From NCBI GenBank assembly GCA_023249635.1, contig JAHFCH010000003.1:36617-100616 (forward strand): a stretch of 64,000 nucleotides of DNA. Direction: 5' to 3'. The DNA comes from Fibrobacterota bacterium. Its GTDB lineage: Bacteria; Fibrobacterota; Fibrobacteria; UBA11236. Below the pieces are notes generated by a model. It ran no database searches. It was not told the DNA's origin and saw nothing but the letters and a program-made list of their open reading frames with translations. Position numbers and translations under genes: made by a program. This document shows, piece by piece, positions 7,316 through 46,590 of this stretch (position 1 is the stretch's first letter; each line of letters begins with the position of its first letter).

Positions 7316-8014
7316 ATGTCCTTTTCCCTGAGCCGAACTCCAGCGCTAATCCTGGGCGCTCTGCTTTTCGTATCCGCACTACCCCTGGCGGCCGCACCCG
7401 GTCTGGTCGCGGACAAGGATACGGTCATCGGCATCGAACTCCCGCATTGGGAGGACAAGACCCCCTGGGTGCCGGCCAACTACGTGCGGGTACGCAACGT
7501 TTCCAACCACCCGATCACCTTCGATTCACTGCGGAGCCTTGCCGACACCATTACCTATCGCGGATCGCGAACCGGGACGCCCCTCGATCTGGCTTTCGCG
7601 GTGCGCACCTATGCGGGCGGAATGCAAACGCGGGACTTCGTCCTGCGTTTCCGGCCCCCGATCCTATTCAGCTTGGCTGCGGGCGACTCGGCGGATATCG
7701 GCCTCTTCGAAATCGGCCGCTTCGGATTTCTGGTGAAGACATCGGCCGCGGAACGACGCTACGTTCCCGGAGCCGCCATCGTGCAACCCTTGGTGTTCAA
7801 ATGCGGTTCCGATTCGCTGGTAATTACCCTCAAGGCCACGGTCATGGAGGCATCCTACGGGAGCGGCATCGTGGCGCCGCAGGTCCGCGGAGCCTGGTCT
7901 ACCTCGGGAGTAACGGGATGGCGGGCGGATGGCAGGATGGCGCCGCGAGGGCGCCGCGAAGCCGGGATGGCGATTACGGAGCGGGAACCAGGGTCATTTT
8001 CCCGGAGGCCGTGA
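7316..8014 (+). CDS. hypothetical secreted protein
   Basis: Signal peptide MSFSLSRTPALILGALLFVSALPLAAAPG; no recognisable domain. The C-terminal ~13 codons overlap the convergent gene, so the true stop is uncertain. Confidence 0.4.
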   Translation: MSFSLSRTPALILGALLFVSALPLAAAPGLVADKDTVIGIELPHWEDKTPWVPANYVRVRNVSNHPITFDSLRSLADTITYRGSRTGTPLDLAFAVRTYAGGMQTRDFVLRFRPPILFSLAAGDSADIGLFEIGRFGFLVKTSAAERRYVPGAAIVQPLVFKCGSDSLVITLKATVMEASYGSGIVAPQVRGAWSTSGVTGWRADGRMAPRGRREAGMAITEREPGSFSRRP

Positions 8015-11442: not shown

Positions 11443-12816
11443 ATGGGCCCGATGGCAATGACGCAGCCCGACATCGGCGCGCGGGTCAAGGCCCAGTACG
11501 AAGCCTTCCCGTATCCGCATTACCCCCTATGGATCCCGCTGGGATCGCAGGAAGCCTACGCCTCCAATTCCCTGTTCGCCGCCCGCCTGTCCGATCAGGG
11601 CGGAGGCAGTCCCGCCATACGGCGCGGAGTGGCTCCGCGGGTACTGCTGGCAGGGTGCGGCGACGTGTTCCCCTACATGGCGACTTTTTGGGAACCGCGG
11701 GCCCATCGGCTTACGGCCCTGGATCTTTCCGCCCGCAGCCTGCGGCGCGCCCGGCTGCGCTGCCTGCCGCGCCTGCGGGGAATCGAGTGGCGCCAGGGTA
11801 ACCTGGAAGATACGGAGGCGGATTTATCCGGCGATTGGTCGCATATCGACTGCTACGGCGTGCTGCACCATCTGGCCGACCCGGGTCGGGTACTGCGCCG
11901 TTTCGGAGCCCTGCTTGCGAGCGGGGGCACCGCGCGCATCATGGTCTACAATAGCGGGGCCCGCGCGTGGATCCGCCACCTGCAAAAGGCTTTCGGGCTT
12001 TTGGGGCTTACCGCTTTCGATCGCGGGGAGCGGGAAGCCGCCCGCGGTTTGCTGGATGCCTTGGCGGCCTTATCTCCCGGCCTGGCCGCCCGCTTCGCTC
12101 ACATGCCCGGGGACTCCTTCGCCAATCCAGCCCGCTTCGTGGATACCTTCCTGCACGCGCGGGAAGCCCGCCTGGGCGCATCCTACTGGCAGGGGGCCAT
12201 CGCGGCCGCGGGTTTGCGGGTGACGGGGCTGTTCGATCGCTACGGAGAGTTGGACGATCTGCCCAACCCCCTGCTGCGACCGCCTGCCCTGGCCGATTTG
12301 GAAGCGCGCATCTCTGACAGGCGCTTCGAGAATAATCTGGAACTGTACTTGGCCAAGCCGGGAACCGCCGGGGATGCGGGACCCGGGGCCATGCGCGCGT
12401 TACCCTCCCCGCAGGCCTGGAGGCCACCGCCCCGGGTCTGGTCGGGATTTCCGGAAATCGACGCGCTCACCCGCGGCCAACGGCGCCGCGTCTGGGCGCA
12501 TGGCATCGCCCGACTTTCCGGTTTGCCCGCCGCGCCGGCCGATGCCTGGGCGGGTATAATGCCGCCGCGCGCGTTGCAAAGGTTGGCGCGCCTGGGAGCG
12601 CTGTTCCCGGATGATTTCCGCAGCGCGGAGTTGCGGGCCTTGCTCATCGACCCGATGGAAGACTTCATGGAACCACCGGAAACCGTTGCCCCGGGAGCGG
12701 TGCGGCAGGATCGCGGCCTACGCGCGCGGGTAGAAGCCCTGCTCCGGGAACGCGGGCGCGATGGGAAGCTGCTGGAAGCGGTTATGCGCCGCCTGGACGC
12801 GGCGCAGCGGCCTTAG
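11443..12816 (+). CDS. class I SAM-dependent methyltransferase with a ~250-aa C-terminal extension of unknown function
   Basis: RVLLAGCGDV (motif I, GxGxG-like), LTALDLSARSL, and WSHIDCYGVLHHLADP (motif II/III region) fit the Rossmann methyltransferase fold. The C-terminal half has no recognisable domain. Confidence 0.6.
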   Translation: MGPMAMTQPDIGARVKAQYEAFPYPHYPLWIPLGSQEAYASNSLFAARLSDQGGGSPAIRRGVAPRVLLAGCGDVFPYMATFWEPRAHRLTALDLSARSLRRARLRCLPRLRGIEWRQGNLEDTEADLSGDWSHIDCYGVLHHLADPGRVLRRFGALLASGGTARIMVYNSGARAWIRHLQKAFGLLGLTAFDRGEREAARGLLDALAALSPGLAARFAHMPGDSFANPARFVDTFLHAREARLGASYWQGAIAAAGLRVTGLFDRYGELDDLPNPLLRPPALADLEARISDRRFENNLELYLAKPGTAGDAGPGAMRALPSPQAWRPPPRVWSGFPEIDALTRGQRRRVWAHGIARLSGLPAAPADAWAGIMPPRALQRLARLGALFPDDFRSAELRALLIDPMEDFMEPPETVAPGAVRQDRGLRARVEALLRERGRDGKLLEAVMRRLDAAQRP

Positions 12817-12826
12817 GCCCGTCCCA

Positions 12827-14305
12827 TCAGTAGCCGAGATTGGTTTCCGCCGTGGCCAGGTTCAGGTCCTTGGCCCAGATGTTCCGGTAACGAACGTCCG
12901 AGCCTTCGCTCTGGAGCTTGAGGCCGAACAAGGTGGGGCCCAGGGGTTCGCCGCTATGCTGGTCGGCCCCGATGCCCGTAGCGGAACCATGCGCCTGACG
13001 GTTCTTATGCACCTGCACCCCGTTCCACCATACCGAGATGAAGGCATCCTCGAGCTTCTTCCCGGCATTGTCGTAACGGGCCGACCGGAACGTGATATCG
13101 TAGGCCTGCCATTTGCCGTTGGGACGGTTCACGTTGGCGGTAGGCGCGTAATCGTCCACGATGCCGCCCAGATCATGGTTGCCGGGCAAGGTATTCTTGT
13201 CCTGGGAAAAGGCGCGCACCTGGATCTCGTAGCGGCTTTGCAGGTATACGCCGCTATTGTAATAGCCGGGCTTGCGCGGCGACTCGTCGATGGCGTCTCC
13301 GGCATTGGCGTTCTCGTTGGCGTCATATTCGCCCATGCCCATGAACTCGACGTGCAACTGCGCGTCGCCATGCGTCCTTATGGCCTGGATATCGTCGTAG
13401 CCCCATAGCTGGCTGCAGCAGGATTGCAGAGTGACCCGGTTGGTATCGGCCGGGAACTCAGGATCCTTGGCGATCTTGAATTGGTCCCGCGCCGCCGTGT
13501 ACTTCGCCAGTTCGGCGCCCGTTACCGCCGGGATCCAGTCCTTCCAATTCGCTTTCAGTTCGGCCTGCGCCGCGGCCTTGCCTTTGCCGCCGTCGAAAAG
13601 CACGTAGGCGCCGTAGATGGCCGGCGCGCCCACGTCCAGCTTGCGCGCCGGATAGTCGAGCACGATATCGCCCAGATCGGCATCGTCGGCGGCGAAGGCG
13701 ACGGTCTTCTTGAGCAACTTATCGCAGGTAACATCTACGTTACCTGACGCGGCCTTGGCCAGGGCGGCGACGGGGAGCGCCCGGGAACCTTGATCAGGAG
13801 CGCCGGAAGCGGTAGACCAATGCAGGCCCTCCGGCCCGCGCAGGCTGAGGATGCGCATCACCCAGGATGCCCCGCCGGTGGTGATGCGCGCGAAGCCCGA
13901 GAAATCCGTTCCCTTGGGAGGCAACACATCCATCCGGTTGACTCCCGCTTCGGCGGTCGCGTAAAGGCGATCGGAAACGGCTTGCCCGGACAGGCCGAAC
14001 AATTCCACCCGCACGCTTTGTCCCGGCGCGGCCGCTTCCACCCATAAGGCGCCATCGCGAAAGCGGGGCGCGGAAAGGGCGATCGGCACTCCTGAAAGGG
14101 CGGTAGCGGTTCCCGAGAGGGTGAACCGTCCCGCGGTGTCGGTAGTGGCCTTAAGGCTGCCTCCGGCGACTTGCACCAGGGCCCCGGGCACGGGCTTCAT
14201 GCCGGCCTTCTCCAATACGCGGCCCTTGAGGTTGTAAGTCTGTGAGTTCCCGAGGCCGAGGCCAAGACCAAAGAGGATCAATAGAGCGATACGAAGATGT
14301 GACAT
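12827..14305 (-). CDS. secreted CarbopepD_reg-like plus DUF1080 two-domain protein (paralog of 10173..11402)
   Basis: Signal MSHLRIALLILFGLGLGLGNS. LKGRVLEKAGMKPVPGALVQVAGGSLKATTDTAGRFTL and GLKLQSEGSDVRYRNIWAKDL match the domain order and near-identical C-terminus (TNLGY vs TDLGF) of the upstream paralog. Confidence 0.7.
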   Translation of the reverse strand: MSHLRIALLILFGLGLGLGNSQTYNLKGRVLEKAGMKPVPGALVQVAGGSLKATTDTAGRFTLSGTATALSGVPIALSAPRFRDGALWVEAAAPGQSVRVELFGLSGQAVSDRLYATAEAGVNRMDVLPPKGTDFSGFARITTGGASWVMRILSLRGPEGLHWSTASGAPDQGSRALPVAALAKAASGNVDVTCDKLLKKTVAFAADDADLGDIVLDYPARKLDVGAPAIYGAYVLFDGGKGKAAAQAELKANWKDWIPAVTGAELAKYTAARDQFKIAKDPEFPADTNRVTLQSCCSQLWGYDDIQAIRTHGDAQLHVEFMGMGEYDANENANAGDAIDESPRKPGYYNSGVYLQSRYEIQVRAFSQDKNTLPGNHDLGGIVDDYAPTANVNRPNGKWQAYDITFRSARYDNAGKKLEDAFISVWWNGVQVHKNRQAHGSATGIGADQHSGEPLGPTLFGLKLQSEGSDVRYRNIWAKDLNLATAETNLGY

Positions 14306-14320
14306 GCGGGAAAAGGTATC

Positions 14321-15214
14321 CTACCGGCCGGATACCAGAGCGGGTTTTCCCGCGCCGGGCGCGGCTTCCGCTTTCCATCCGAAAGCGGATTTCCCCGGCC
14401 ACCATCTGCCGGAGGCGAGCCAGCCCCCACAGGTAGGCTTGGCCGCCCGGGAGCCCTGTAACGGCAGGGCCTGCAGGGCGACCGAGGGCGGACCCGTACG
14501 GGTATAGATGCGCACGTAATCGACCTCGTACACGCCCGGCCAGGGTGTAGTGGCATCGGGAATTCCGATCCAACTGTCCCCGCCCACCATCAGCTCCAGG
14601 GCCCAGCACATCTCCATGCGCAATTGCGGCGCCACCGTCTTGTCGCGCAGCTTGACCACCCCGTCCACGTAGAAGATCAACTCGTCCGCGTTCCATTCCG
14701 TACCCAAGGTATGCCATTCGGTGGCCAGGTTGGTTCCGGTCCAGGCGCCGCCGGGCGCGGCGCTCGCGGTATGCAGGTACCAATAAGGATGGTTGGGCTC
14801 CTCGCCCCGGGTCTCGATGATGTCCAGCCAAGGCGGATAGCCCCCGCCCGCCTTGATGCCGGTCAGCTTGGCGGAGAAGCCCTTGCCGTTGGGAACCTTG
14901 ATGCGCGCTTCCATGTAGCCGTACATTTGGTGGAACTTGTTTTTGTTGTTGATGGCGGCGCCGGCGTAAGTCTTCCCCTGGCCCGCGCGTTTCTCCCCCA
15001 CCAGCTTCAAGCTGCCGTCGGAGAGGCGCACGTTGGCGGGATCGGGCCAACTGCCGGGGCCGGTCGCCTCGAGGGCGTAGCCGTTGTTCCACTTAGACGC
15101 GTCCAGGGTGGCGCCTTCGAACTCGTCCTGGAAGGTGAGCTTCCAGGCTGAATGGGCAGGGGGATCGGCCAGCAGCGGGGAGGCGGCGCAGGCGAGGGCG
15201 AGGAAACGTCTCAT
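14321..15214 (-). CDS. glycoside hydrolase family 16-like secreted protein (laminarinase fold; catalytic nucleophile possibly missing)
   Basis: Signal peptide. LTFQDEFEGATLDASKWN and GYMEARIKVP fit GH16. The expected GEIDIME block reads PPWLDIIE, where Trp appears to replace the first Glu. WPGVYEVDYVRIY is the typical C-terminal strand. Confidence 0.65.
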   Translation of the reverse strand: MRRFLALACAASPLLADPPAHSAWKLTFQDEFEGATLDASKWNNGYALEATGPGSWPDPANVRLSDGSLKLVGEKRAGQGKTYAGAAINNKNKFHQMYGYMEARIKVPNGKGFSAKLTGIKAGGGYPPWLDIIETRGEEPNHPYWYLHTASAAPGGAWTGTNLATEWHTLGTEWNADELIFYVDGVVKLRDKTVAPQLRMEMCWALELMVGGDSWIGIPDATTPWPGVYEVDYVRIYTRTGPPSVALQALPLQGSRAAKPTCGGWLASGRWWPGKSAFGWKAEAAPGAGKPALVSGR

Positions 15215-15230
15215 GCGGGTTACCTTGGGT

Positions 15231-17834
15231 TCAGGGGATCCAGGGCAGCGACGCGGAGGCCTTCCCCACCCCGTCCGCCGCGATTACCTGGTACATGCCC
15301 GCGGGAAGCGTGGCTCCCGCGGCGTCTCTTCCGTTCCAAACGATCTCATGCCCGCCCGGAGCGGACCCACCGCGCGCGGGGCGACTGCGTGCGGACCATA
15401 CCAAGCGGCCCCGGGAATCCAGCATGCGCACCAGGGCCTGCGGTCCCAAGCCTTCCAGGGCGATGCGCAGGGATCCGCCGATGCGCTGCAAGCGCAAGCG
15501 GCCCGCCGGTTCCGTAAGCGCCCGTCGCGCGATGCCGACCTTATGGATTTCGCCGTCATCCAATTGCTGCAGGAAGGCGACCAGTTGCGCCTTCTGCGAC
15601 GCGTTCAGTTGCGAAGTCTTGCCATGCTTGTCCCCGGCATTGGCGGCGCCGATCACGTCCATCAAGGTGGCGGCGCTTCCGTCATGCAGGTATGGCGGGG
15701 TATCCCAGATGCCTTTCAGGGTCGGCGTATCGAATCCCTGCAGGGTATCCTTGAGCCGATGGCCCGCCGACGGCTTGAGCGTGCCGACGTCGTGTACCAG
15801 GAATCCCTGGGGCGTAATGTGATCGGTGGAGGGCAACCCCGCCGCCGAGGGCATGGTGGCGGGGATGGGAAGGCGGCTATCGGTATACAGGGGCGGAATA
15901 TGACAGCGGGCGCATCCGGTTTCGGCACTGTTGAAGATGAGCTCGCCGGCCGCAGCCTCGGCGGTATAGGAGCCGTCGGCGCTCTTGTATGGGCTGGGAT
16001 TGACCTGGACCAGGCCTGCCACGTAGGCCGCGAGGGCGTCCAGGGAGGGCGAGACTCCCGCTTTGCGGTCGCCCAGGGTCTGGCTGCGCGTGCCCGCGTT
16101 GAAATCGGCGTCCGTCATGAAGCCCTTGCCTCCGAACGGCCCGCGCATGTCGTTCTCGAAATCCTGGATCTCGTCGAAGTTGGCGCTCCAATGCACCGGT
16201 CCGTGCGCCATGCCTCCGCGGCCGTTGAGCACCGTGGTACGGCGCAGGCCTTCGCCCCGATCGCTGAAATCCCAGACCCGTCCGTCGCTGCCGCCGTCCA
16301 AGTGGCATACCGCGCAGCTGATGTAGCCATTGAAACTCATCTGGGAATCGGCCGCGTTGTAGAAGATGCGTTTGCCTTGCAGCGCCTGGGGCGTCAGGGG
16401 CTCGAAGGCCGAGGTGGGGATGCTCCCCAGCGGACGCGATTGCACCGAGTCCTGGGCGATGGCGTCGCGATCATTGTACGGCGAAACGTCCCAGAGGGAA
16501 ACCGAGCGGCCCAGAAAGGCGTGCACGTAAAGGGTCTTGCTGCGGTTGTCCAAAGCCAGGCCGATAGGCGCGAGCCCCACCGCCTTGTTGCGCTCCAGCA
16601 CCGCGCCATGGTTGTAGGGATCGCGGGTCTGCCCCGAATTGGATCCTTCCAGGGACGAGAAGATCAGATCGCCCATGGCGTTGTACACCGAAGCCGAGGC
16701 CATGGAAGCATTGTCGAAATCGTTGCGCTCCCCGGGCAGGTCCACGTTATTCACGAGATCGAGGTACGCCAGGCCCGTGCGCGCGGTATTCTCCGCGATC
16801 AGATCGACCCCGCTCAGGTAACGGCCGCGTTGGGTATTATCCTTCACCGCCGAAATCAAAGCGCGGGTGCCGTCCGGTGAAATCACGATGGAGGCCAGGT
16901 AATTGAATACGCCTCCGCCCCCGGTCTCGGTATCGGGCGTGGTATCGTAGGCCAGGTTGAAGGTGCGGACCTTCGCGAAAGCGGCCGCATCGACCTCCCA
17001 GACCTCGGCGTGATCCGCCGGGGACATGAAGCGCGTGACCAGGATGCGCGCCCCGTCGCCGCTCACCGCCAGGGCCCGGGGCGCGGGTCCCAACGCGATC
17101 TGCCCCAGTATCGTGCGGGTTACGGGATCGATTCTCGCCAGTTTTCCCGATCCTTCCAGGGAAACGTAGGCCATGGTGCCCGCGGGATTGAATACGATGC
17201 CGTTGGGACGCGAACCGTAGCCCATCGCCAAGGTCGCGAGTACATGCCCATCCGCCGCGGCATGCACGGTGACGGTTCCCGAGCCCCGGTTGGCCGTCCA
17301 GATGCTGCCGTCCGGCGCCCGCGCCAGGGTGAACGGGGCGACACCGCTGGAGACCTCGAAAAGCAAGGTCTTGGCCCTGGCGTCGAGCGCGGCAATGGTG
17401 CCGTGATCGGGATTGGTGCACCATAGCCTGCCGGCCGCCGTATCCAATACGATGGTGGATGAATGGGTCGGGGCTATGGCGGTGGGACGGGTATGCACCG
17501 TGATGGGCAGGAAGGCGTTCACGAATTCGCCTTCGGCGTTCTTGACGTAGATGCTGGCCCGGTAATGCCCCGGCTGCCCATAGGCGTAGGCCGCGGAGGA
17601 TGCCTGGACGTAGGCGGTGGCGGCGCTGCTGTCCCCGAAGCGCCACCGGTAGGTGAGCGCCGGGCTTGCGGTGTCGTGCGCAGTAACGGTGAAACGAATG
17701 GTATCGCCCACGAAAGCATCGCTGGGAGAAGCCTCGGGTCCCGCGGTAATGACGGGGGCCGTCCAGGCCGGTACGGCGAGGAACAGGGCGGCCCAAAGAC
17801 GGAATAAAAGGCGCAAACGCATGGGACTCGGCAC
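15231..17834 (-). CDS. large secreted multidomain protein: PKD domain, beta-propeller (YVTN/NHL-like), di-heme cytochrome c peroxidase-like domain, T9SS C-terminal sorting domain
   Basis: Signal peptide MRLRLLFRLWAALFLAVPAWTA. PKD-like segment FVGDTIRFTVTAHDT...YRWRFGDSS. Repeated GSIWTANRGSGTVTV-type propeller blades. Two CxxCH heme motifs (CAVCHLDGGSDGRVWDF and CARCHIPPLYTD) ~125 aa apart, as in the CCP/MauG family. C-terminus VRMLDSRGRLV...WNGRDAAGATLPAGMYQVIA is a T9SS CTD. Confidence 0.7.
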   Translation of the reverse strand: MPSPMRLRLLFRLWAALFLAVPAWTAPVITAGPEASPSDAFVGDTIRFTVTAHDTASPALTYRWRFGDSSAATAYVQASSAAYAYGQPGHYRASIYVKNAEGEFVNAFLPITVHTRPTAIAPTHSSTIVLDTAAGRLWCTNPDHGTIAALDARAKTLLFEVSSGVAPFTLARAPDGSIWTANRGSGTVTVHAAADGHVLATLAMGYGSRPNGIVFNPAGTMAYVSLEGSGKLARIDPVTRTILGQIALGPAPRALAVSGDGARILVTRFMSPADHAEVWEVDAAAFAKVRTFNLAYDTTPDTETGGGGVFNYLASIVISPDGTRALISAVKDNTQRGRYLSGVDLIAENTARTGLAYLDLVNNVDLPGERNDFDNASMASASVYNAMGDLIFSSLEGSNSGQTRDPYNHGAVLERNKAVGLAPIGLALDNRSKTLYVHAFLGRSVSLWDVSPYNDRDAIAQDSVQSRPLGSIPTSAFEPLTPQALQGKRIFYNAADSQMSFNGYISCAVCHLDGGSDGRVWDFSDRGEGLRRTTVLNGRGGMAHGPVHWSANFDEIQDFENDMRGPFGGKGFMTDADFNAGTRSQTLGDRKAGVSPSLDALAAYVAGLVQVNPSPYKSADGSYTAEAAAGELIFNSAETGCARCHIPPLYTDSRLPIPATMPSAAGLPSTDHITPQGFLVHDVGTLKPSAGHRLKDTLQGFDTPTLKGIWDTPPYLHDGSAATLMDVIGAANAGDKHGKTSQLNASQKAQLVAFLQQLDDGEIHKVGIARRALTEPAGRLRLQRIGGSLRIALEGLGPQALVRMLDSRGRLVWSARSRPARGGSAPGGHEIVWNGRDAAGATLPAGMYQVIAADGVGKASASLPWIP

Positions 17835-17841
17835 CGCCGGA

Positions 17842-19620
17842 TCAACGGCCTTTCAAGAAAACGGCGCAGGACAAATCCGCCGATCCCGAAACCATTCGGG
17901 CGCGGTATATGCCCCGACCCAATCCTCCGGTCCGGCCCGCGTCCAGGGACCAACCCTGGGTGATGGCATCGGTATCGACGTCGATGCGCAGCCGCTCGCG
18001 GCCCGCCATGTCCGAGATCATCAAGCGGCCGACGCGGCCAATACCGGTGGGCGTACCCTGGAGGCGGAAGCTCAGACCGCCGCCGGGCGACGCATCCCCG
18101 GAAAGCCGGGCCTTGGCGCGCCAGGGACGGGGCGCGTTCACTCCCACAGAATTCACGTAGGCCCCGCCGTCCACCGTAGCCCCGGTCGCGAAGCGAAATC
18201 CGAATTCGCCGGCAATCGGGTTTCCTGTCCAATCCTTCACGCCTCCTGCGCGCACCACCACTTCATAGGTGGTATTGGCCTGTAGCGGTTGGTCGGGGGT
18301 GAAATTGACCACGCCCATGGTATGCCCGTACACGCCGCTGATGGGAGTCACGGATCCCTTGGCGTGTATGCTGATGTTCTCGGAGGTGAGGGTGCGGTTG
18401 TCGAGCTCTTCATCGAAGGCGATTCCGATGCGGGCGGTGGTGGCCAGGCGGGGTTCGCCGTTGGCGGGGTTTATGAACAATACCGAAGGCGCGATGCTGT
18501 CCGGGCGGGACTGGTGCACGAACAGGTTCGACTCATTGGCGGTGCCGTTGGTGCCGTCGCGCCCGGCGTCGCCGACCCAGAGCATATTGCCCATGGGGTA
18601 GCAATAGCGCGACGTATGCTTGTCCGGCATGATGGCGTGCAAGACCGTCTTGCGGGCCTTGATGTCGTACTTCACGAATTCGCCGTTGTTGATCTTGCCC
18701 CCGAACATGAAGCCGTTCTGGAAGCTCGCGTAGTCACCCATGCCGGCCACCACCTCGCGCCATTCCATGTTGATGGCTGTGGGATCACTGATGTCGAAGA
18801 AGCCGACCTCGCCCATGTTCTGCGGGCCGCTGGTCACCAGGTACTTGCCGTACATTTGCGAGGTGTACATGCTGGGTCCGGTCTTGACCGCGTCCAATAG
18901 CTTGGGGTTTTCCGGATCCTGCAGATCCCATGTCGAGACGCCGGCGAATTGATCGCCGCTGGTCACCACCAATATGTTGCCGATCACCTGGGTGCTGCCG
19001 GTGGTGAAGCCCAGGGTGCCCTGCACGCCCACCTGCTTGACGATATTTCCGCGCCCGGGGTTGGAATAATCCACGATGTACATGGGCGAACTGCGCGCGC
19101 TGGCATCGTCGTAACTGCGGGTGCTGTAAAAATACGGCCATTGGAAAGCCGGCCAAACCGATCCGTAGAAACCCGCGTTGGTACCCACCACCTTGGGATT
19201 GGCCGGGTCCTTGAGATCGAGCAAGGTGCCGCCGTCCATGATCATGGTGCCGGCGGTGGGGGTGGTATGATCGTCGCCCTGGCCGCTGAAGGTGAAGGTC
19301 TTGACCGTCTTGGGCGCGCGCGGATCGGCGATGTCCATGACGTCGATGCGGTTGCAGCGGTTGTTGAAGATGACCAGGTAGCCCTGGAACATCATGCCTT
19401 TGGGGACGCGCTCGGTGAGGCCTTGGAAGCGGCATACGCGCTTGCCGATTTCGTTTTCCGGGAAGGTTATCCTGGGGATGCCGCCGCCGAGTTGTTGGGC
19501 CTGGGCCCGCCCGGCCAAGGTTGCCGCCGCGGCCAGCATCGCCAGGGTGGCCGCGATATCTTTGATTGAACGCATTCGTCTTCTCCAGAGGAGCCCGGGC
19601 GACGCCCTGCTCCGCCCCAC
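17842..19620 (-). CDS. secreted LVIVD-repeat beta-propeller protein with Ig-like domain and T9SS C-terminal sorting domain
   Basis: Signal peptide AATLAMLAAAATLAGRAQA. Repeated YLVTSG / LVVTSGDQ motifs (LVIVD repeat). Ig-like segment PSVLFINPANGEPRLATTARIGIAFDEELD...TYEVVV. C-terminal LMISDMAGRERLRIDV...GIYRARMVSG matches a T9SS CTD. Confidence 0.6.
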   Translation of the reverse strand: MGRSRASPGLLWRRRMRSIKDIAATLAMLAAAATLAGRAQAQQLGGGIPRITFPENEIGKRVCRFQGLTERVPKGMMFQGYLVIFNNRCNRIDVMDIADPRAPKTVKTFTFSGQGDDHTTPTAGTMIMDGGTLLDLKDPANPKVVGTNAGFYGSVWPAFQWPYFYSTRSYDDASARSSPMYIVDYSNPGRGNIVKQVGVQGTLGFTTGSTQVIGNILVVTSGDQFAGVSTWDLQDPENPKLLDAVKTGPSMYTSQMYGKYLVTSGPQNMGEVGFFDISDPTAINMEWREVVAGMGDYASFQNGFMFGGKINNGEFVKYDIKARKTVLHAIMPDKHTSRYCYPMGNMLWVGDAGRDGTNGTANESNLFVHQSRPDSIAPSVLFINPANGEPRLATTARIGIAFDEELDNRTLTSENISIHAKGSVTPISGVYGHTMGVVNFTPDQPLQANTTYEVVVRAGGVKDWTGNPIAGEFGFRFATGATVDGGAYVNSVGVNAPRPWRAKARLSGDASPGGGLSFRLQGTPTGIGRVGRLMISDMAGRERLRIDVDTDAITQGWSLDAGRTGGLGRGIYRARMVSGSADLSCAVFLKGR

Positions 19621-19811
19621 CGAACCTGTTCTATACTACCGCGTGCCCGGCCCCGGGAGCATGGGTTAAGCTGAGGCCGGGGGCTTTCCGCTTTCGCCGG
19701 AAAACCGGACCGATGACCGAATTCCGCCTGGAAACGCGGGAGCCAGTCAAAAAAATCTCAAGCGGTTCCGCGGGGGACCCAAAGCCCGAAAACGGCGATG
19801 TAGCGGAGAGG

Positions 19812-20777
19812 TTACGGGGAGGGAAAGGTCGGAACGAAAGGTATCGCCGCCCGCGCCCGGCCCGCCGCATCGCGGGTGGCAAGGCCGATGGGGAACGCGG
19901 CATTCCGTCGGGAGGGAAGCAGCATGCCGATCAGGGAAGGAGGGGAGACAGCCAACCGGGATCCCTCCGCGCCCGCCAAGCGGAACTCGTCGAAATAGAC
20001 CACGCGGCGATCGACATCGGAATCTACGCCATTGTAGGTGGCCGTTTTCCAAGGCCATTTGTAAAGGCCGATATCGATGGCGGGCAGTTGCCCGTTGGGA
20101 TACCCCAAGCGGATACCGTGCAGATCGACGAGCTTCCGCGACGTCCCCAGCGAGTCCGTCTTCCAGACCTCCAATATGCCTCCCGCATCGGAAGGCGCGA
20201 GCTTCACATGGAACACCCAATCGACCCAACGCCCCGGCTCCTGCGGCCCGACGGGAAGATCGACGGTGCTCACGTCGGCATTGGAAGCCGGGTCGATGGC
20301 GGACCAGCGGTATTCCACCCCCAGCTTGCCGGCCTCGCAATACAGGCCCAGAATCGGCGAGGCGTCCGGATCGTTGTGGAGTTGGAAGATGAGTTCAGGC
20401 AACGGATCCACCTTCCAGGCATCCGGTCCGGTGCGCGGGAAGAAGGTACTGAAGCCGATCCAACGCTCATCGCTGCCGGTAAGGAAGCCGTCGGTTTTCC
20501 GGAACATGGCCCGATGGAATAATCCGCCTTGGGAACGGTCCATGATGAAGCGTGCGGAAGAGGCCCCCACGCGGGACTCTTGCGTAGCCAGCTCCCCGAT
20601 GCGGATGCCCCCGCCATCGATAGTATGGGTATACCAGGCCCAGGTGGCGTGGTCGGTTTCGAAATCGGAATGGAAGACGGATTGGGCGGGGACGGCGGAC
20701 GCGTATGTGAGAACCAGCGTCCAAGCGGTAATCCGGGCAAGAGGCGCGGAGTCGCGCGGTTTCGGCCAACTTGGCAT
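19812..20777 (-). CDS. secreted concanavalin-like jelly-roll protein, possibly PL7/alginate-lyase-2-like polysaccharide lyase
   Basis: Signal peptide MPSWPKPRDSAPLARITAWTLVLTYASAVPAQS (start taken at this Met, not the ORF-track start). IFQLHND and IGLYKWPW resemble the QIH and YFKAGVY blocks of alginate lyase 2. Weak call. Confidence 0.35.
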   Translation of the reverse strand: MPSWPKPRDSAPLARITAWTLVLTYASAVPAQSVFHSDFETDHATWAWYTHTIDGGGIRIGELATQESRVGASSARFIMDRSQGGLFHRAMFRKTDGFLTGSDERWIGFSTFFPRTGPDAWKVDPLPELIFQLHNDPDASPILGLYCEAGKLGVEYRWSAIDPASNADVSTVDLPVGPQEPGRWVDWVFHVKLAPSDAGGILEVWKTDSLGTSRKLVDLHGIRLGYPNGQLPAIDIGLYKWPWKTATYNGVDSDVDRRVVYFDEFRLAGAEGSRLAVSPPSLIGMLLPSRRNAAFPIGLATRDAAGRARAAIPFVPTFPSP

Positions 20778-20880
20778 TCCCCGAATGTACCGCGGTCCAT
20801 CTGCCTCCAAACGAGGAATCCGCCGGCGGCACCGTTTCCGCTTTTTCTCCAAATCCGGCCGTGCGTTCGTGCCGGGGGCC

Positions 20881-21723
20881 TCAATCCAGTAGCAGCAGCG
20901 GATCTTCCTTCCAGTCGGAAAGCTTGTGGTCTTTGTCGTTGAGCTTGGGGCCAAAGAACCTTTGGATGCTGCCCGTATCCGACGCGAAGGCATTGAGCGC
21001 CAACTTGTCGAAGATCGCCTTATCCGGGATCAGCCAGCCGTTCTCGAGTATCCCCGCATTTTTCAATCCCGCTTGGGCGACCGGAGCCGAGCCGCGGTTG
21101 CGCACGTAGACGTACACCTGGAAGCTGCCGGCGTTGGCGAAGAATTTCAGGGGCAAGCGTGCCTCATCCGCCCGATAGACCACATGCAAGGGATGCAGCA
21201 CCTTTTCCACCCCGCTCATTCCCTTCACCTTGATCGCCAGGAAACACGCCTTCGGTTTCAGGTAGTACCGCAGCCCAGCGACAGGGACTTCGGCATATCC
21301 GTTCTTTGCGAGCCATTGGTTTATTTCCGCGCCGGCATGGACATCCGTGATCTCGATGGGGATGATTTCATAATTCCCGACATGGACCGTGTCATGCACG
21401 ATGAACCGATCCGCCGACAAGCTCGCGATGCCCCGACTCTTCATTACCGGTTCGGTGGCGCGGAAAAGGGTTTCGAACATTTCGTCCTTCTCCTGGAAAT
21501 ATTTCGACGGCACCGAGGGCAAAGGGGTGACCCAGGCGAATTCCTTGGGAAGCGGCAAAGTCGATTGGACCTGTTGGTTCATGACCATGTGGATGTCCTG
21601 GCCGGATTTGAAGAAGAGGTATTCCTGGACCTTGCTGCCCAATTTCCCGGGATAGTCGCGGGGCGGATGCAGGCATGCGGCGCCGAGCGAGAAAGCGGAA
21701 GCGATGATAAGCGAAAACCCCAT
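20881..21723 (-). CDS. hypothetical secreted protein
   Basis: Signal peptide MGFSLIIASAFSLGAAC. 280 aa with no motif I can name. Tightly packed in the minus-strand run. Confidence 0.45.
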   Translation of the reverse strand: MGFSLIIASAFSLGAACLHPPRDYPGKLGSKVQEYLFFKSGQDIHMVMNQQVQSTLPLPKEFAWVTPLPSVPSKYFQEKDEMFETLFRATEPVMKSRGIASLSADRFIVHDTVHVGNYEIIPIEITDVHAGAEINQWLAKNGYAEVPVAGLRYYLKPKACFLAIKVKGMSGVEKVLHPLHVVYRADEARLPLKFFANAGSFQVYVYVRNRGSAPVAQAGLKNAGILENGWLIPDKAIFDKLALNAFASDTGSIQRFFGPKLNDKDHKLSDWKEDPLLLLD

Positions 21724-21735
21724 GGTGCGCATGCT

Positions 21736-23028
21736 TTACAACCCTTTCCGGAATCCGGCTAAACGCTCCACCGCCAGGGCCAAGGTCTCTTCCTTCTTGC
21801 AAAAGCAGAACCGCAGCTTATGGGCATGCGCGCCCATGCCCTTTGGCCCGCCTTTCGCCTTGTAGAACGAACTGCCCGGCACGGCCGCCACCTTGGTTTC
21901 CGCGACCAGGTAACGCGCGAGTTCCGTGTCGTCGCGGAACCGGCCCCGGCTTCCCTTGATTACGTCCGCTACGTCGGCCATCACGTAGTAGGCCCCGCGC
22001 GGCACATGGCAGCGGAAGCCCGCCGCCTCCAGCCCCGACACGATGAAATCGCGGCGCGTGCGGTAATGCTCCGCCAGATCCCGATAGAACTCCGGCCCCA
22101 ATCCCAGGGCCCCGCGCACGGCCTCCTGCAACGGCGTGGCCGCGCACACAGTCATGAAGTCGTGCACCTTGCGCAGCCCGTCAGTGATGGATTCATGGGC
22201 CACCGCCCAGCCTACGCGCCAGCCCGTGATTCCGTAGGTCTTGGAGGCGCTGCCGATCGTCACGGTGCGATCCTCCAAGCCGGCGATCGAGGCCGGGCTC
22301 ACGTGTACGGCCCCATCATAGAGGATATGCTCGTAGATCTCGTCCGAGAAAACCCGCGTGTTCCACTTTTGGCACAGCTTGGCGATCAGGACAAGTTCGT
22401 CCCGGGTGAAAACCTTGCCGGTGGGATTATGCGGCGTGCAGATCACGATGGCGGCTGTCTTGGGGCCGAATGCGCGCGCCAACTCCCGCTCATCGATGGA
22501 CCAATCCGGCTCGCGTAATGTCACGTAAACCGGCTTGGCCCCGCTGAGGTAGGCATCCGGATGGTAGTTCTCGTAGAACGGCTGGAAGAGGATGACTTCT
22601 TTGCCGGGATCGAGGGACGACATGAAAGCGCAAATCATGGCCTCGGTGGCGCCGCAGGTCACGGTAACGTTTTTGTCCGCATCCGCCTTGATCCCATTGT
22701 ACTCGCCAACCTTCTTGGCGATGGCTTGCCGTAATGCCGGCATGCCCCAGGTGACCGAGTATTGGTTGTAGTCCGCGTCCACGGCGGCGCGGGCAAGATC
22801 CTTAAGGACCGGGTCGCAGGGGAAATCGGGAAAGCCTTGGGCCAGGTTGACGGCGCCATGCAGATGGGCCATGCGCGTCTGCTCGCGGATGACCGACTCG
22901 GTGAAATCCCTCAGGCGCAAGGCCGGGACCATGGCGGCGAGTGCCGGGGCGGCTTTCGCCGACCGCTGGGATTTGGATTTGGAACTAGGCTTGGGCTTGG
23001 GCTTGGTCTTAGGCTTGGGCATCGGCAA
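21736..23028 (-). CDS. PLP-dependent aminotransferase class I/II (kynurenine/methionine aminotransferase-like) with Lys/Pro-rich N-terminal extension
   Basis: VNLAQGFPDFP, CTPHNPTGKVF and SASKTYGITGWRVGW (PLP lysine) are present. The N-terminus MPMPKPKTKPKPKPSSKSKSQRSAKAAPA is histone-H1-like; the true start could be the internal MVPALRL (~22932). Confidence 0.85.
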   Translation of the reverse strand: MPMPKPKTKPKPKPSSKSKSQRSAKAAPALAAMVPALRLRDFTESVIREQTRMAHLHGAVNLAQGFPDFPCDPVLKDLARAAVDADYNQYSVTWGMPALRQAIAKKVGEYNGIKADADKNVTVTCGATEAMICAFMSSLDPGKEVILFQPFYENYHPDAYLSGAKPVYVTLREPDWSIDERELARAFGPKTAAIVICTPHNPTGKVFTRDELVLIAKLCQKWNTRVFSDEIYEHILYDGAVHVSPASIAGLEDRTVTIGSASKTYGITGWRVGWAVAHESITDGLRKVHDFMTVCAATPLQEAVRGALGLGPEFYRDLAEHYRTRRDFIVSGLEAAGFRCHVPRGAYYVMADVADVIKGSRGRFRDDTELARYLVAETKVAAVPGSSFYKAKGGPKGMGAHAHKLRFCFCKKEETLALAVERLAGFRKGL

Positions 23029-23031
23029 AAG

Positions 23032-23721
23032 CTAATTCGCCGAAGGCCCTCCCCGGAGGCGTTCGAACCACAGGCAGAACGCCAGGCGGATCTGCGCCGA
23101 ATCGACCTGAGGCAAAGCGCGGGCATATTCCCACAGACCCAGCTTTATGAACTCGCCTTCCTCCGCCTTGCCGGTCTCCCCGCCTTCCAAGGCATGGTAG
23201 CGATCGCCCGGCAGCTCGAGGGTGCATCCGAAGAAATGGATGGCTTCGTCGTCGAGGCCCGGAGATGTGTAGAGGGGCTTGTCGCAGAGGGGGAAGAGCA
23301 GACCCGGCGCCACTTCCAGTCCGGTCTCCTCGGCAAGTTCCTTGACCGCGACTCCGAGGGGATCGTCCACGTCCTCGTCGAGCATGCCGGCGGGAAATTC
23401 CAGGGTATCGCCGCCATGGCCGATGCGGCGCTGCCGTAGCATCAGAAAGCGGCGCTCACCGGTATCCCCATTGACCACCTCGGTGACGATGACCACGGCA
23501 TGGCCGCGCAGCAAGGCGTACTTGGGCAGGGGGCGACCCTGGGGATCATCCACCCGGGTTTTGAGCAGGGCGAAGAGCAGGGAGCCGTCGCCTTTGGGAA
23601 GATCTGCGAGAACCTCGACGCTTTTCAGGCGGCAGCCATTGGCCGCGAGGTCCTTTTTCCAAGCCCGGTACTTGGGGGTCTTGAGCAATCGCTCCGATTC
23701 GCCGGGGAGGGATTCCGCCAT
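23032..23721 (-). CDS. NUDIX hydrolase
   Basis: Nudix box GHGGDTLEFPAGMLDEDVDDPLGVAVKELAEETGL (GX5EX7REUXEEXGU). Start ATG overlaps the upstream stop (ATGA). Confidence 0.8.
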   Translation of the reverse strand: MAESLPGESERLLKTPKYRAWKKDLAANGCRLKSVEVLADLPKGDGSLLFALLKTRVDDPQGRPLPKYALLRGHAVVIVTEVVNGDTGERRFLMLRQRRIGHGGDTLEFPAGMLDEDVDDPLGVAVKELAEETGLEVAPGLLFPLCDKPLYTSPGLDDEAIHFFGCTLELPGDRYHALEGGETGKAEEGEFIKLGLWEYARALPQVDSAQIRLAFCLWFERLRGGPSAN

Positions 23722-24218
23722 CAGCCGCCCGCGTGGTACTCCAGGCCCAACCCGACGCGGATGAGCATCTGGCCGTTGGGGCCGGCGAAGAAGGCGGGGA
23801 TGAAGGCGCCGTAGAAATCCAGGGAAGGCGTGGCTTTGAAGACCGCCATAACGTCGCCGCCGATGTCCACGTAGTTTTCGACGATCTTCGAGTAGCCGAT
23901 ATGCGGCCCAATGCGCAACCAGAAAGCCTGGTCGATCTTGGGCTTGTAATACGCACCCACATAGCCGCCGAATTCGTTGGCATTCGGGAAATTCTCGGTC
24001 TTTTTACGGAATCGCGAATAATTCCCATGAAGCCCCAGATCCCATCCGTCCGTGGCGGCCGCGATAAGGCCGAGCTCTCCGCCGATCCCGGCTTTGTAAT
24101 TCTCGTCGTAGATGGAGGCGCGCAGGCCCAGGTCCAGATTGAGAGGCGCGGGGAAAGCGGCCAACGGAGCCAGGCACAAGCAAGTGATGGAGGCCGCAAG
24201 GCGTCGGGGGTTCATCAT
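23721..24218 (-). CDS. small putative outer-membrane beta-barrel protein
   Basis: Only the C-terminal 165 aa of track ORF 23721..24866 look real. Signal peptide MMNPRRLAASITCLCLAPLAAFPAP is followed by alternating hydrophobic beta-strand pattern (GAYYKPKIDQAFWLRIGPHIGY...LIRVGLGLEYHAGG). Stop overlaps the NUDIX start. Confidence 0.45.
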   Translation of the reverse strand: MMNPRRLAASITCLCLAPLAAFPAPLNLDLGLRASIYDENYKAGIGGELGLIAAATDGWDLGLHGNYSRFRKKTENFPNANEFGGYVGAYYKPKIDQAFWLRIGPHIGYSKIVENYVDIGGDVMAVFKATPSLDFYGAFIPAFFAGPNGQMLIRVGLGLEYHAGG

Positions 24219-24399
24219 GTCAATCTCCTTAGGGGTCCAGGCTGCGCGGGGCATAAGCATACGCCGCGCAAGAAACCCAATATACCCCCTCCGGGAACTC
24301 CGCACAGCCCGCCCCCGGATGCGTAATCGCGACTGGGATTCCCGGACGGCCTCCCAAAACCGGCCACGAGCACCCTTGCCAGGGCCGCAGGGACGGCTT

Positions 24400-25299
24400 T
24401 CACTCCGGACCGGCCCAGTCCCGGGGCTTAAGGAAATACTCCGTGAGCCGGGCCTCGGGGCTTCCGGGCGCCGGCGTGAAGCCATAGGTCCACTTGGCCA
24501 GGGGCGGCATGGACATGAGGATGGATTCGGTGCGGCCCCCCGATTGCAGGCCGAAGAGCGTGCCGCGATCCCACAGCAAGTTGAATTCGACGTAGCGGGC
24601 GCGCCGGTACAGCTGGAAATCGCGCTGCGCCTCGGTAACGGGCGTGTTACGGCCGGCCAGGAAGGGGCGGTACAGGTCCGGAAAGGCGAGACCCAAGGCC
24701 TCCACCGTGGCGAAATCCTTTTCCCGATCCCCGCGCAAGTGATCGAAGAACAAGCCCCCCACCCCGCGCGGCTCGGCACGGTGCTTGAGGAAGAAGTATT
24801 CGTCGCAGGCTTTTTTCCATTCCGCATAATCCCGCCCCTGGCTCGCGCACAGGTCGCGCAAGGCACGATGGAAACCGATCACTTGCGACTCGACGGGATA
24901 ATAGGGAGTCAGGTCGACCCCGCCCCCGAACCACCAGGCTTCGCCGGCCTCGAAGTAGCGGATGTTCATGTGGATCGTGGGAACATGCGGGTTACGGGGG
25001 TGCATCACCAGGCTGACGCCGGTGGCGTAGAAGGGCGTGCCCGGCGGGATCTTGAATTGCGTCGCCGCCGAGGGGGGAAGCGAATTCCCCGTGATGGCGG
25101 AGAATCCCACTCCGCCTTTTTCCAGCCAAGGGCCGTCATCCCAGGTGCGCGTGATGCCGCCGCCGGATCCGGTAGCGTAGTTCCAGGCATCCTCGCGGTA
25201 GGGTCCGTCCTCGCCGGAGAGGAACGCGCAGATGGCGTCCTGTACCCCCCGAAACGCGGCGGTGACGCTGTCCTTGTCCATGCCCCGGGCCTGCGTCAT
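24400..25299 (-). CDS. hemF: oxygen-dependent coproporphyrinogen III oxidase
   Basis: Near-collinear with HemF signatures: HMNIRYFE, WWFGGGVDLTPYYP, GVGGLFFD, NFQLYRRARYVEFNLLWDRGTLFGLQSGGRTESILMSMPPL. Confidence 0.9.
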   Translation of the reverse strand: MTQARGMDKDSVTAAFRGVQDAICAFLSGEDGPYREDAWNYATGSGGGITRTWDDGPWLEKGGVGFSAITGNSLPPSAATQFKIPPGTPFYATGVSLVMHPRNPHVPTIHMNIRYFEAGEAWWFGGGVDLTPYYPVESQVIGFHRALRDLCASQGRDYAEWKKACDEYFFLKHRAEPRGVGGLFFDHLRGDREKDFATVEALGLAFPDLYRPFLAGRNTPVTEAQRDFQLYRRARYVEFNLLWDRGTLFGLQSGGRTESILMSMPPLAKWTYGFTPAPGSPEARLTEYFLKPRDWAGPE

Positions 25300-25357
25300 A
25301 CGGAAGCCAAGGTAGGAATTTTTCTATTTTCCAGGCCGAGGCAGAAAAGGCGGACGC

Positions 25358-26236
25358 ATGGGCGGATTTCTCTATTGGTGGCAGCATATCCCCGCGCATA
25401 TGGATCCCGTGCTCATCAACCTGGGGCCCCTCCGCATCCAGTGGTACGGCCTCATGTATATCGTAGCCTTCACGGCCACGTATTTCCTGGCGCGCGCCCG
25501 CTGCCACCGGGAAGATCGTTTCCGGGTCTACGATGACGAGTTCCTCAAGAACATTTTGACTTACGCCTTCATTGGCGTCCTGGCCGGCGGACGGCTGGGC
25601 TACGTGCTCTTCTACAACCTGCATTACTACGCCCTGCATCCCTTCGAAGTCATCCTCCCTTTCGGCTTCCACGGCGGATTCCATTTTACGGGCATCTCGG
25701 GCATGTCTTACCATGGCGGGGTCACCGGCGCCATCGTCGGCAGCTACCTGTTCAGCAAGCGCTACAAAGCCGATTTCTGGAACCTGAGCGATCTCTTCGC
25801 CCCCGTCATCCCCCTTGGCTACACCTTCGGCCGTCTAGGCAATTTCATCAACGGCGAGCTCTGGGGCCGCATCACGGATCATCCCATTGGTATGTACTTC
25901 CCGCTTTCCCCGGATCCCACCCTGCTCCGCCATCCCTCGCAACTATATGAAGCCTTCTTCGAAGGGATTTTCCTCTTCGTGGTCTTCCTGGTCCTGCGCC
26001 GTATGCGCCTCCCCAAGGGCTCCATGCTCCCTGGGTATATCTTCGGGTACGGGTTCGTCCGCTTCTTCATCGAATTCTTCCGGGAACCGGACAAGCACCT
26101 GGGATTCGTGCTGCTGGGCCGTTTCTCCCGGGGCCAAGAGCTCTGCGCCTTCATGATGGCCTTCGCCATCGGCCTGTTCCTATGGTTGGCATTGCGCAAA
26201 CCCGTAGCGGAACCGGCCCAAGCAAGCGTCCCATAA
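25358..26236 (+). CDS. lgt: prolipoprotein diacylglyceryl transferase
   Basis: Lgt signature GRLGNFINGELWGR, plus IQWYGLMY and YHGG. Polytopic membrane protein. Confidence 0.9.
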   Translation: MGGFLYWWQHIPAHMDPVLINLGPLRIQWYGLMYIVAFTATYFLARARCHREDRFRVYDDEFLKNILTYAFIGVLAGGRLGYVLFYNLHYYALHPFEVILPFGFHGGFHFTGISGMSYHGGVTGAIVGSYLFSKRYKADFWNLSDLFAPVIPLGYTFGRLGNFINGELWGRITDHPIGMYFPLSPDPTLLRHPSQLYEAFFEGIFLFVVFLVLRRMRLPKGSMLPGYIFGYGFVRFFIEFFREPDKHLGFVLLGRFSRGQELCAFMMAFAIGLFLWLALRKPVAEPAQASVP

Positions 26237-30491: not shown

Positions 30492-30492
30492 A

Positions 30493-36591: not shown

Positions 36592-36658
36592 ATATATATT
36601 CCCGCAAAGAACACAGGGCGAACGGTCGCGCCCTGCATCGCATTCCGGAGGGAACCTT

Positions 36659-46588: not shown

Positions 46589-46590
46589 GT

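Follow-up and report, generated by a model that had tools for sequence, protein, structure and literature searches.

Fused homologues of the hydrazine synthase (HZS) beta and gamma subunits are widespread outside the anammox bacteria and are given as being of unknown function (Hagglund et al. 2025, PMC12758564). That source describes them as a seven-bladed YVTN-type beta-propeller followed by a di-haem domain resembling cytochrome c peroxidase (CCP), with two CXXCH motifs, a Trp at the position of gamma-His144 and a wide phyletic spread that includes Bacteroidota; for HZS itself, it gives gamma-Cys165 as a third covalent haem link and places gamma-His144 near haem gamma-I. In the CCP/MauG/RoxA superfamily (PF03150, PF21419), two c-type haems, a conserved Trp between them and a PY(L/F)HDG motif are shared, and H2O2- or O2-dependent oxidation chemistry is expected. 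Here, a 64-kb stretch of DNA from a Fibrobacterota metagenome-assembled genome (MAG) lineage was analysed as a whole (the window), with a run of minus-strand genes at 12827-25299 as its subject. The run encodes a di-haem protein with these same features, and a nearly abutting gene encodes a second propeller protein; the two are referred to below as the core pair.

Other genes of the run recall further described systems. DUF1080 proteins, secreted or periplasmic, occur in the oxidation-elimination-hydration clusters AL1-5 of Alistipes and BT2156-2160 of Bacteroides, where they are 3-keto-alpha-glucoside lyases and 3-keto-2-hydroxyglucal hydratases and where the characterised pathway depends on Gfo/Idh/MocA oxidoreductases together with a sugar-phosphate-isomerase-like TIM-barrel lyase (bioRxiv 10.1101/2024.03.25.586180). 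Use of type IX secretion (T9SS) has been proposed for the glycanases of Fibrobacter succinogenes (Raut et al. 2019, PMC6851124), which resemble the proteins described here in phylum, in being secreted carbohydrate-fold proteins with basic C-terminal extensions and in having no Sus-like transport genes. In fungi, a haem peroxidase is secreted that works together with copper-radical alcohol oxidases (Bissaro et al. 2022, PMC9770985).

The 12.5-kb run is best read as a mosaic, with at least three units in place of a single ten-gene one. Comparison with homologous loci showed the two nearly abutting core genes to be a split form of a widespread single-chain protein, predicted to be extracellular. 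The explanation we regard as probable combines this mosaic structure with a core made of a split, secreted di-haem pair, a clade-specific protein of the glycoside hydrolase family 16 (GH16) fold that lacks its nucleophile, a clade-specific DUF1080 protein, and an oxidative, glycan-linked role that we infer for the pair. The ten genes of the run, all confirmed as consecutive on the minus strand, are as follows.

12827-14305, minus strand: CarbopepD_reg domain (14093-14230) and DUF1080/3keto-disac_hyd domain (12872-13372); Pfam 1.1e-19, PDB 4qhz E 1.9e-10
14321-15214, minus strand: GH16-fold protein; Pfam Glyco_hydro_16/PF00722 4.5e-10, 39.7 bits against a cut-off of 22
15231-17834, minus strand: core gene 2, with signal peptide, PKD domain, YVTN propeller, di-haem domain and FlgD_ig-like tail; Pfam, NCBIfam
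17842-19575, minus strand: core gene 1, with signal peptide, LVIVD propeller, Big_5 domain and C-terminal beta-sandwich; Big_5 7e-21
19812-20777, minus strand: jelly-roll protein, Polysacc_lyase PF14099; Pfam 1.7e-21
20881-21732, minus strand: DUF2330-like secreted or lipoprotein-type protein, no Pfam match of its own, relatives having PF10092
21736-23028, minus strand: class I/II aminotransferase, Aminotran_1_2; Pfam
23032-23721, minus strand: NUDIX protein; Pfam
23721-24218, minus strand: conserved 165-aa signal-peptide protein ('OMP'), without significant family match
24400-25299, minus strand: hemF, Coprogen_oxidas; Pfam

The G+C content of the window was approximately 63 %, and third-position G+C (GC3) marked a single clear coding frame throughout. 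The Pfam scan covered 50 window proteins, namely all GC3-called open reading frames (ORFs) of at least approximately 170 aa, with a dozen shorter ORFs lying outside the scan. Hidden Markov model (HMM) searches upheld most domains named in the initial annotation, including three DUF1080 domains, GH16, the PKD/propeller/di-haem architecture, Big_5, the aminotransferase, NUDIX and hemF, and failed to recover its T9SS sorting domains. Signal-peptide-like N-termini, expected for the first five proteins of the run, were visible by eye in the first six. The protein called PL7-like is indeed a jelly-roll lyase, of the related family PF14099 and not of the PL7 model; the hypothetical secreted protein is of a secreted or lipoprotein type and is judged DUF2330-like by its relatives; and the outer-membrane barrel proposed at 23721-24218 found no support from a significant family match.

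Core gene 1 encodes a seven-bladed LVIVD-type beta-propeller (approximately 18496-19458), a Big_5 Ig-like domain (18184-18501) and a beta-sandwich (17845-18123); its product contains no CXXCH motif and gave no match in a PDB sequence search. Core gene 2 encodes a PKD domain (17526-17762), a YVTN beta-propeller (approximately 16425-17468), the di-haem domain (15552-16382) and a FlgD_ig-like domain (15234-15473). A pattern scan for di-haem relatives, using one genome per species, gave at least 588 relatives, and the best 80 loci were retrieved, including members of the Verrucomicrobiota, Planctomycetota, Myxococcota, Bacteroidota, Proteobacteria and Fibrobacterota. When all window proteins were compared by tblastn, 70 of the 86 loci with a di-haem homologue also had an LVIVD/Big_5 homologue. 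Of 83 non-redundant loci, 53 encode the LVIVD/Big_5 module and the PKD/propeller/di-haem part in one ORF and frame, with the former N-terminal, and nine others have the module as a separate gene immediately upstream, so that the pair in the window would represent one functional unit in split form. The single-chain relatives span 1200-2350 aa and often include lectin or cellulose-binding modules. All-against-all clustering of the neighbours in the 80 loci revealed no recurrent partner beyond the fusion partner; an ABC ATPase, considered as a conserved partner, was present in nine loci and was judged incidental. A second Big_5 and di-haem pair, 44 % identical, was observed in locus L010 (JAQBPN010000058.1), from the same genome as the close relative L088, without GH16-like or DUF1080 neighbours.

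The two CXXCH motifs of the di-haem domain, CAVCH (16302-16316, residue 503) and CARCH (15900-15914, residue 637), lie approximately 130 residues apart. H544, W545 and H713-D714-G715 were invariant in 16 homologues, and both the Trp between the haem domains and the PY(L/F)HDG motif were present. The RoxA-like_Cyt-c model (PF21419) scored above its cut-off (30.5 vs 26.7 bits) and the whole-protein score for CCP_MauG (PF03150) fell below its gathering cut-off (19.5 vs 25.6 bits). By sequence, the closest solved structure was HZS gamma (5c2v_C, E 8.4e-21, residues 495-757), followed by MbnH-type enzymes and cytochrome c peroxidases (CCP 3o5c, E 2e-6), and the best PDB fold for the modelled propeller was HZS beta (5c2v_B, E 1.3e-16, TM 0.78). 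Together, the sequence match to 5c2v_C and the fold match to 5c2v_B place the protein among the fused beta-gamma homologues. At the level of sequence, the di-haem domain is thus assigned to the CCP/MauG/HZS-gamma superfamily, not as a hydrazine synthase, and the propeller and di-haem part as a fused beta-gamma HZS homologue.

Hydrazine synthase function was rejected on the basis of the residues. In the HMMER alignment with 5c2v_C, W545 aligned to gamma-His144 and an Ala to gamma-Cys165, the Cys of RVCG, and the score for NCBIfam hydrazine_BC (NF052342) was 87.6 bits, below the equivalog cut-off of 1250 bits. The Trp for His144 and the missing Cys165 match the description of the non-anammox homologues in PMC12758564. 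A Pfam scan found no alpha-subunit homologue nearby and no other cytochrome gene close by. Compared with HZS beta-gamma, the window protein is without a nearby alpha homologue or third covalent Cys, and adds a PKD domain and a FlgD_ig-like tail. It also differs from the homologues of PMC12758564 in having the LVIVD-propeller/Big_5 protein as a constant partner, which is not discussed in the portion of that paper seen here, and in belonging to a subgroup that bears lectins and carbohydrate-binding modules (CBMs). Relative to the CCP/MauG/RoxA enzymes, it is fused to propellers and presumably exported beyond the periplasm, and by alignment the sixth ligand of its second haem appears to be His (HGKTS), not Met or Tyr.

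Fused relatives from Aquimarina, Chthoniobacter, Acidovorax, Pseudomonadales and KSB1 were examined for additional modules. One to three Laminin_G_3 (ConA-like) domains lie between Big_5 and PKD, and the C-terminus carries CBM_3, ricin-B lectin, extra PKD/Ig or DUF5060 domains; the last domain of the Aquimarina homologue is a genuine Por_Secre_tail. Other di-haem homologues carry CBM2, CBM6 or CBM35. Among five tested loci without the LVIVD module, four (Paracidovorax wautersii DSM 27981, locus L079; a Methylophilaceae MAG, a gammaproteobacterial MAG and a Verrucomicrobiia MAG) had Glyoxal_oxid_N, Kelch and GO-like_E_set domains at the same N-terminal position, which is the architecture of copper-radical oxidases. 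In these four loci, AbfB, legume-lectin or He_PIG domains come after the oxidase-like module. The same three oxidase-type domains were found in homologues P0034, P0038, P0040 and P0041. In both the LVIVD/Big_5 and the oxidase-like module, an Ig-like domain comes after a propeller.

From the oxidase-fused relatives, a tandem of oxidase and peroxidase may be proposed, comparable with the fungal pair of an H2O2-producing oxidase and a secreted haem peroxidase (PMC9770985). The likeness is one of functional analogy: the fungal peroxidase has another fold, the fungal partners are separate proteins of a eukaryotic host, and the window has an LVIVD propeller that is not homologous to the oxidase. On a broader and rather unlikely view, the pair and its single-chain relatives would form a new class of bacterial extracellular oxidative enzymes directed at polysaccharide-rich material, in which a propeller/Ig module that can be swapped with a copper-radical oxidase would generate or present the oxidant or substrate for a di-haem peroxidase or oxygenase. 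In this clade the enzyme would be split in two and would join the nucleophile-less GH16 and DUF1080 lyase/hydratases in breaking glycosidic bonds in a non-Koshland, oxidation-dependent manner.

To place the pair in its genomic context, gene spacing was compared with gene order in relatives. From 12827 to 25299 the junctions measure 15, 16, 7-19, 236, 28-103, 3, 3-9, -1 and approximately 94-180 nt, with start codons for the gap sizes picked by signal peptides and orthologue lengths. The spacing of 3-16 nt with a single gap of approximately 190 nt given by the initial annotation is therefore replaced by two or three breaks (236, 28-103 and approximately 94-180 nt), and the gap sizes place one interruption ahead of the Big_5 gene, one behind hemF and perhaps a third ahead of the lyase gene. 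The tight four-gene run consists of the Big_5, di-haem and GH16-like genes, with the DUF1080 gene (12827-14305) last.

Proteins identical to those of the window were reached through the di-haem protein, in a 10-kb contig of an ENA assembly (L001) and in a 114-kb NCBI/ENA contig; an exact-sequence look-up with hemF gave no record. The close relatives comprise six assemblies labelled 'Fibrobacteres bacterium', at 55-79 % identity. All six share the order lgt, hemF, OMP, NUDIX and aminotransferase, then a gap of approximately 210-570 nt, then Big_5, di-haem and GH16-like, and in five of the six a CarbopepD_reg-DUF1080 gene follows the GH16-like gene. The other strand of the relatives carries a second CarbopepD_reg-DUF1080 gene, often a DUF2341/Laminin_G_3 protein, and a DUF4423 gene. 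Together with lgt, the hemF, OMP, NUDIX and aminotransferase genes were retained in every relative (51-82 % identity), and the gap after hemF was approximately 94-186 nt in the window and relatives alike. These four genes are housekeeping neighbours kept by synteny and lie outside the secreted module.

None of the syntenic relatives has the lyase gene, the DUF2330-like gene or the plus-strand methyltransferase gene. No homologue of the PF14099 lyase occurred in 88 loci, no methyltransferase homologue occurred in L002, L004, L087 or L088, and neither the lyase nor the DUF2330-like protein matched anything in PDB sequence searches. The G+C content is slightly lower (0.60) at 19812-21732, and a DUF2330-like homologue lies on a different contig in GCA_028287465.1. 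The lyase and DUF2330-like genes look like a lineage-specific, recent local insertion.

The GH16-like protein has a well-supported fold, with 39 GH16 chains matched in the PDB (best 5e-16). Its catalytic segment reads PPWLDIIE (14813-14830) where the canonical form is PPEIDxxE, so that the nucleophile Glu is missing. PDB alignments set W-L-D-I-I-E opposite the E-I-D-I-M-E of beta-1,3-glucanases, with the nucleophile at a gap before L-D-I-I-E, and blastp alignments put the nucleophile position at W129. This position is W or L in each of the five orthologues, and nearly all of the 150 best representatives, drawn from 1.8 billion clusters, keep PPE[IVL]DxxE, the loss being confined to the orthologue cluster. 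The protein is most likely not a Koshland hydrolase and likely non-hydrolytic, so the annotation as GH16-like holds for the fold and not for the catalytic nucleophile. Its spacing from the di-haem gene, 16 nt in the window, ranges in relatives from a 4-nt overlap to 89 nt. The orthologues were also observed to share a basic C-terminal extension (approximately 14321-14420) with a conserved G.LA.GRWW.G motif and no HMM match; it recalls the 'basic terminal domains' found on Fibrobacter enzymes.

Upstream of the run as numbered, the neighbours expected by the initial annotation, two further DUF1080 paralogues and a 457-aa methyltransferase between paralogues, were all present.

7974-8867, minus strand: single-domain secreted DUF1080 protein, third paralogue; Pfam 3e-24
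9201-10028, plus strand: TIGR02147 ('Fsuc_second')/DUF4423 protein; TIGR02147 2.7e-81
10173-11402, plus strand: CarbopepD_reg and DUF1080 protein, convergent paralogue; Pfam 1.7e-29
11443-12816, plus strand: 457-aa S-adenosylmethionine (SAM)-methyltransferase-domain protein; Pfam Methyltransf_12/23/11/25

The paralogue at 10173-11402 and the 492-aa paralogue at 12827-14305 are 37 % identical (E 1e-67), and the single-domain protein has an orthologue in L088 and in a JGI relative. The gap between the DUF1080 (12827-14305) and GH16-like genes is 15 nt in the window and 158-205 nt in relatives. A PQQ-type glucose/sorbosone dehydrogenase (GSDH, PF07995), unrelated to the methyltransferase, occupies the latter's position in three of the six relatives (L002 18186-19589, L087 15641-17035 and the JGI 3300050046 contig); otherwise the position is empty. 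Across the 86 loci, the GH16-like gene and all other window genes recurred only in the close relatives, with DUF1080 found within 10 kb of the di-haem gene in these and in one other locus, L070. The comparison thus shows a clade-specific association, as read from sequence, of the pair with the nucleophile-less GH16 and the CarbopepD_reg-DUF1080 protein, with two more DUF1080 paralogues nearby. Both CarbopepD_reg and DUF1080 groups were seen to end in ...T[ND]x G[YF]-stop (12827-12850 and 11379-11402, and orthologues in L002, L004, L087 and L088); this conserved aromatic C-terminus could be a sorting or beta-signal-like tail. The plus-strand unit that includes the DUF1080 paralogue begins with the TIGR02147/DUF4423 gene, which at 86-89 % identity in relatives is the best conserved of the region; its product may be a regulator.

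The presence of T9SS sorting signals was evaluated for both core proteins. Neither full proteins nor isolated C-termini matched Por_Secre_tail (TIGR04183/PF18962) up to E=10, so that the two Por/T9SS C-terminal domains of the initial annotation lack HMM confirmation and a FlgD_ig-like tail is restricted to the di-haem protein. That tail, the last 100 residues, scored 29.5 bits for FlgD_ig (cut-off 27) and weakly matched the C-terminal domains of PorZ (2e-7) and PorU. The tail of the Big_5 protein is a modelled beta-sandwich (490-574) with DxxGR and GxYxxR (GxYRAR) motifs conserved in orthologues, and had no HMM match. No significant result came from hhalign, whether the two tails were compared with one another or with the Aquimarina Por_Secre_tail, and BLASTP between the two tails gave no match. 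Within the 64-kb window, none of the T9SS core genes porK-N, sprA/sov or porU/V was found. Unlike the F. succinogenes glycanases, which are canonical hydrolases with tails matching TIGR04183 (PMC6851124), the window proteins do not match this model. T9SS export of the two core proteins is plausible given the FlgD_ig-threshold tail and the tail motifs, with no significant match to Por_Secre_tail by HMM or profile.

Under the favoured explanation of a split secreted di-haem pair, both core proteins would be Sec substrates, with the type IX system probably taking over the later export, and at the cell surface they would come together much as they are joined in the single chain of the fused relatives. 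The haem domain would oxidise a propeller-held substrate using H2O2 (or O2), on or near polysaccharide. The ConA-fold proteins (the nucleophile-less GH16 and DUF1080) would be glycan-binding or keto-sugar-processing accessories; the DUF1080 proteins could process oxidised sugars, and the GSDH is a possible oxidant source in the relatives. An extracellular oxidative, glycan-associated role of the core pair is plausible.

Several results weigh against this explanation. The substrate and chemistry of the core pair are guesses, and no similarity of the LVIVD propeller to any enzyme was found. hhalign of the LVIVD/Big_5 profile against a relative's oxidase-like module indicated no homology, and a literature search on LVIVD with cytochrome c peroxidase, and on YVTN with peroxidase and polysaccharide, found no characterised family member. 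The AlphaFold2 model of the di-haem protein is of low confidence within the haem domain, with pLDDT below 50 at 497-553 and 643-710. The GH16-like and DUF1080 proteins have signal peptides and no recognisable T9SS tail, and might be periplasmic while the core pair is outside. Transcription units were delimited by spacing alone; a promoter and terminator scan of 12600-25500, a method uninformative for Fibrobacterota, gave fewer sites than shuffled sequences and none in intergenic gaps. Finally, the whole 20-kb neighbourhood is collinear among relatives, and the adjacency of the GH16-like and DUF1080 genes may therefore reflect inheritance and not function.

This last point underlies the best-surviving alternative, that the two-gene core alone is functional and that the GH16-like, DUF1080 and remaining genes are adjacent through gene order inherited in one clade. 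Module proteins are 55-76 % identical among relatives and the flanking housekeeping proteins 51-82 %, a similar divergence that fits vertical inheritance in a collinear region, and the housekeeping genes are equally syntenic. The lack of a recurrent neighbour other than the fusion partner in 80 loci from other lineages, the paralogous pair of L010 with neither a GH16-like nor a DUF1080 gene beside it, and the wide GH16-to-DUF1080 spacing in relatives (158-205 nt) all point the same way. We nevertheless consider it doubtful that the core acts alone. The GH16-like gene adjoins the di-haem gene at 16 nt and keeps this position in six of six relatives while neighbours swap, the loss of the nucleophile is confined to exactly this orthologue group, and ConA-like lectin domains lie within the chain of the fused relatives.

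More improbable is the proposal of the initial annotation that all ten genes form one co-expressed, T9SS-exported locus, a new kind of polysaccharide utilization locus (PUL) in which DUF1080 proteins cleave 3-keto-glycosides with di-haem help. The common strand, several junctions of 3-16 nt, the three DUF1080 paralogues beside a GH16-fold protein and a PF14099 lyase, the GSDH between DUF1080 paralogues in relatives, and the FlgD_ig-like di-haem tail in a phylum for which T9SS use by glycanases has been proposed (PMC6851124) are consistent with it. A single locus is contradicted by the gaps within the run (236, approximately 94-180 and 28-103 nt), by its four housekeeping genes and by the two genes missing from all relatives. 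The chemistry is likewise at odds with the data: the DUF1080 family, taken there as 3-keto-glycoside hydrolases, has been shown to consist of lyases and hydratases (bioRxiv 10.1101/2024.03.25.586180), and neither a Gfo/Idh/MocA oxidoreductase nor a sugar-phosphate-isomerase-like TIM-barrel lyase, both required by the pathway, was present among the 50 scanned window proteins. The AL1-5 and BT2156-2160 clusters differ further in having no haem protein and no GH16-like protein, and the link between DUF1080 and the di-haem family fails outside the clade. The missing GH16 nucleophile and the lack of a TIGR04183/PF18962 match also count against it. A Sus-like PUL was dropped as a candidate, with no TonB-dependent receptor (SusC) or SusD gene in the window and matches limited to the 40-residue CarbopepD_reg domains. 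What stands of the proposed oxidative glycan-degradation locus is a secreted, carbohydrate-associated redox cluster; its extent, the DUF1080 logic and the certainty about T9SS and GH16 do not.

Detoxification of H2O2 is common among CCP-family enzymes. A di-haem pair unrelated to glycans, acting as an extracellular peroxide detoxifier, an electron-transfer cytochrome or in nitrogen-oxide chemistry (NO to hydroxylamine), would accord with this, with HZS gamma and beta as the nearest solved structures and with the unknown function of beta-gamma homologues outside anammox bacteria as stated in PMC12758564, and is nonetheless very improbable given the absence of the HZS signature residues (Cys165 to Ala, His144 to Trp) and of an alpha-subunit homologue, a partner without a haem motif, an NCBIfam score far below cut-off, and repeated fusions to CBM, lectin and copper-radical-oxidase-like modules that are hard to square with a detoxifying or respiratory cytochrome.

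The chief value of the locus is thus one of correction, as it is not a novel ten-gene PUL. The value of the family lies in a very widespread group (at least 588 relatives) of uncharacterised giant secreted di-haem proteins related to HZS beta-gamma. Should these proteins prove to be extracellular enzymes that oxidise plant or algal cell-wall material, bacterial oxidative biomass conversion would gain a haem-based branch, and the evolutionary precursors of hydrazine synthase would be placed in a functional setting. The natural split in Fibrobacterota gives two separately expressible halves, of 577 and 863 aa, and the conserved nucleophile-less GH16 protein is a candidate glycan-targeting partner.

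Rfam and tRNA scans of the window gave no match. Elsewhere in it, genes for a DUF1800 and a DUF1501 protein lie side by side at 428-3750, a pairing often seen in Planctomycetota and Verrucomicrobiota. At 45264-47913, a SAM methyltransferase gene adjoins one for a type III polyketide synthase (Chal_sti_synt), with a UbiA prenyltransferase further upstream (36551-37543), and these may constitute a small lipid or phenolic biosynthetic cluster. A 405-aa protein (52763-53980) has a cytochrome c domain in its last 80 residues, its N-terminal 320 residues having no Pfam match, and a 924-aa protein (58693-61467) combines an FGE-sulfatase (formylglycine-generating-enzyme-like) domain with fn3. Two adjacent transglutaminase-like proteins of approximately 640 aa each are encoded at 28566-32430.

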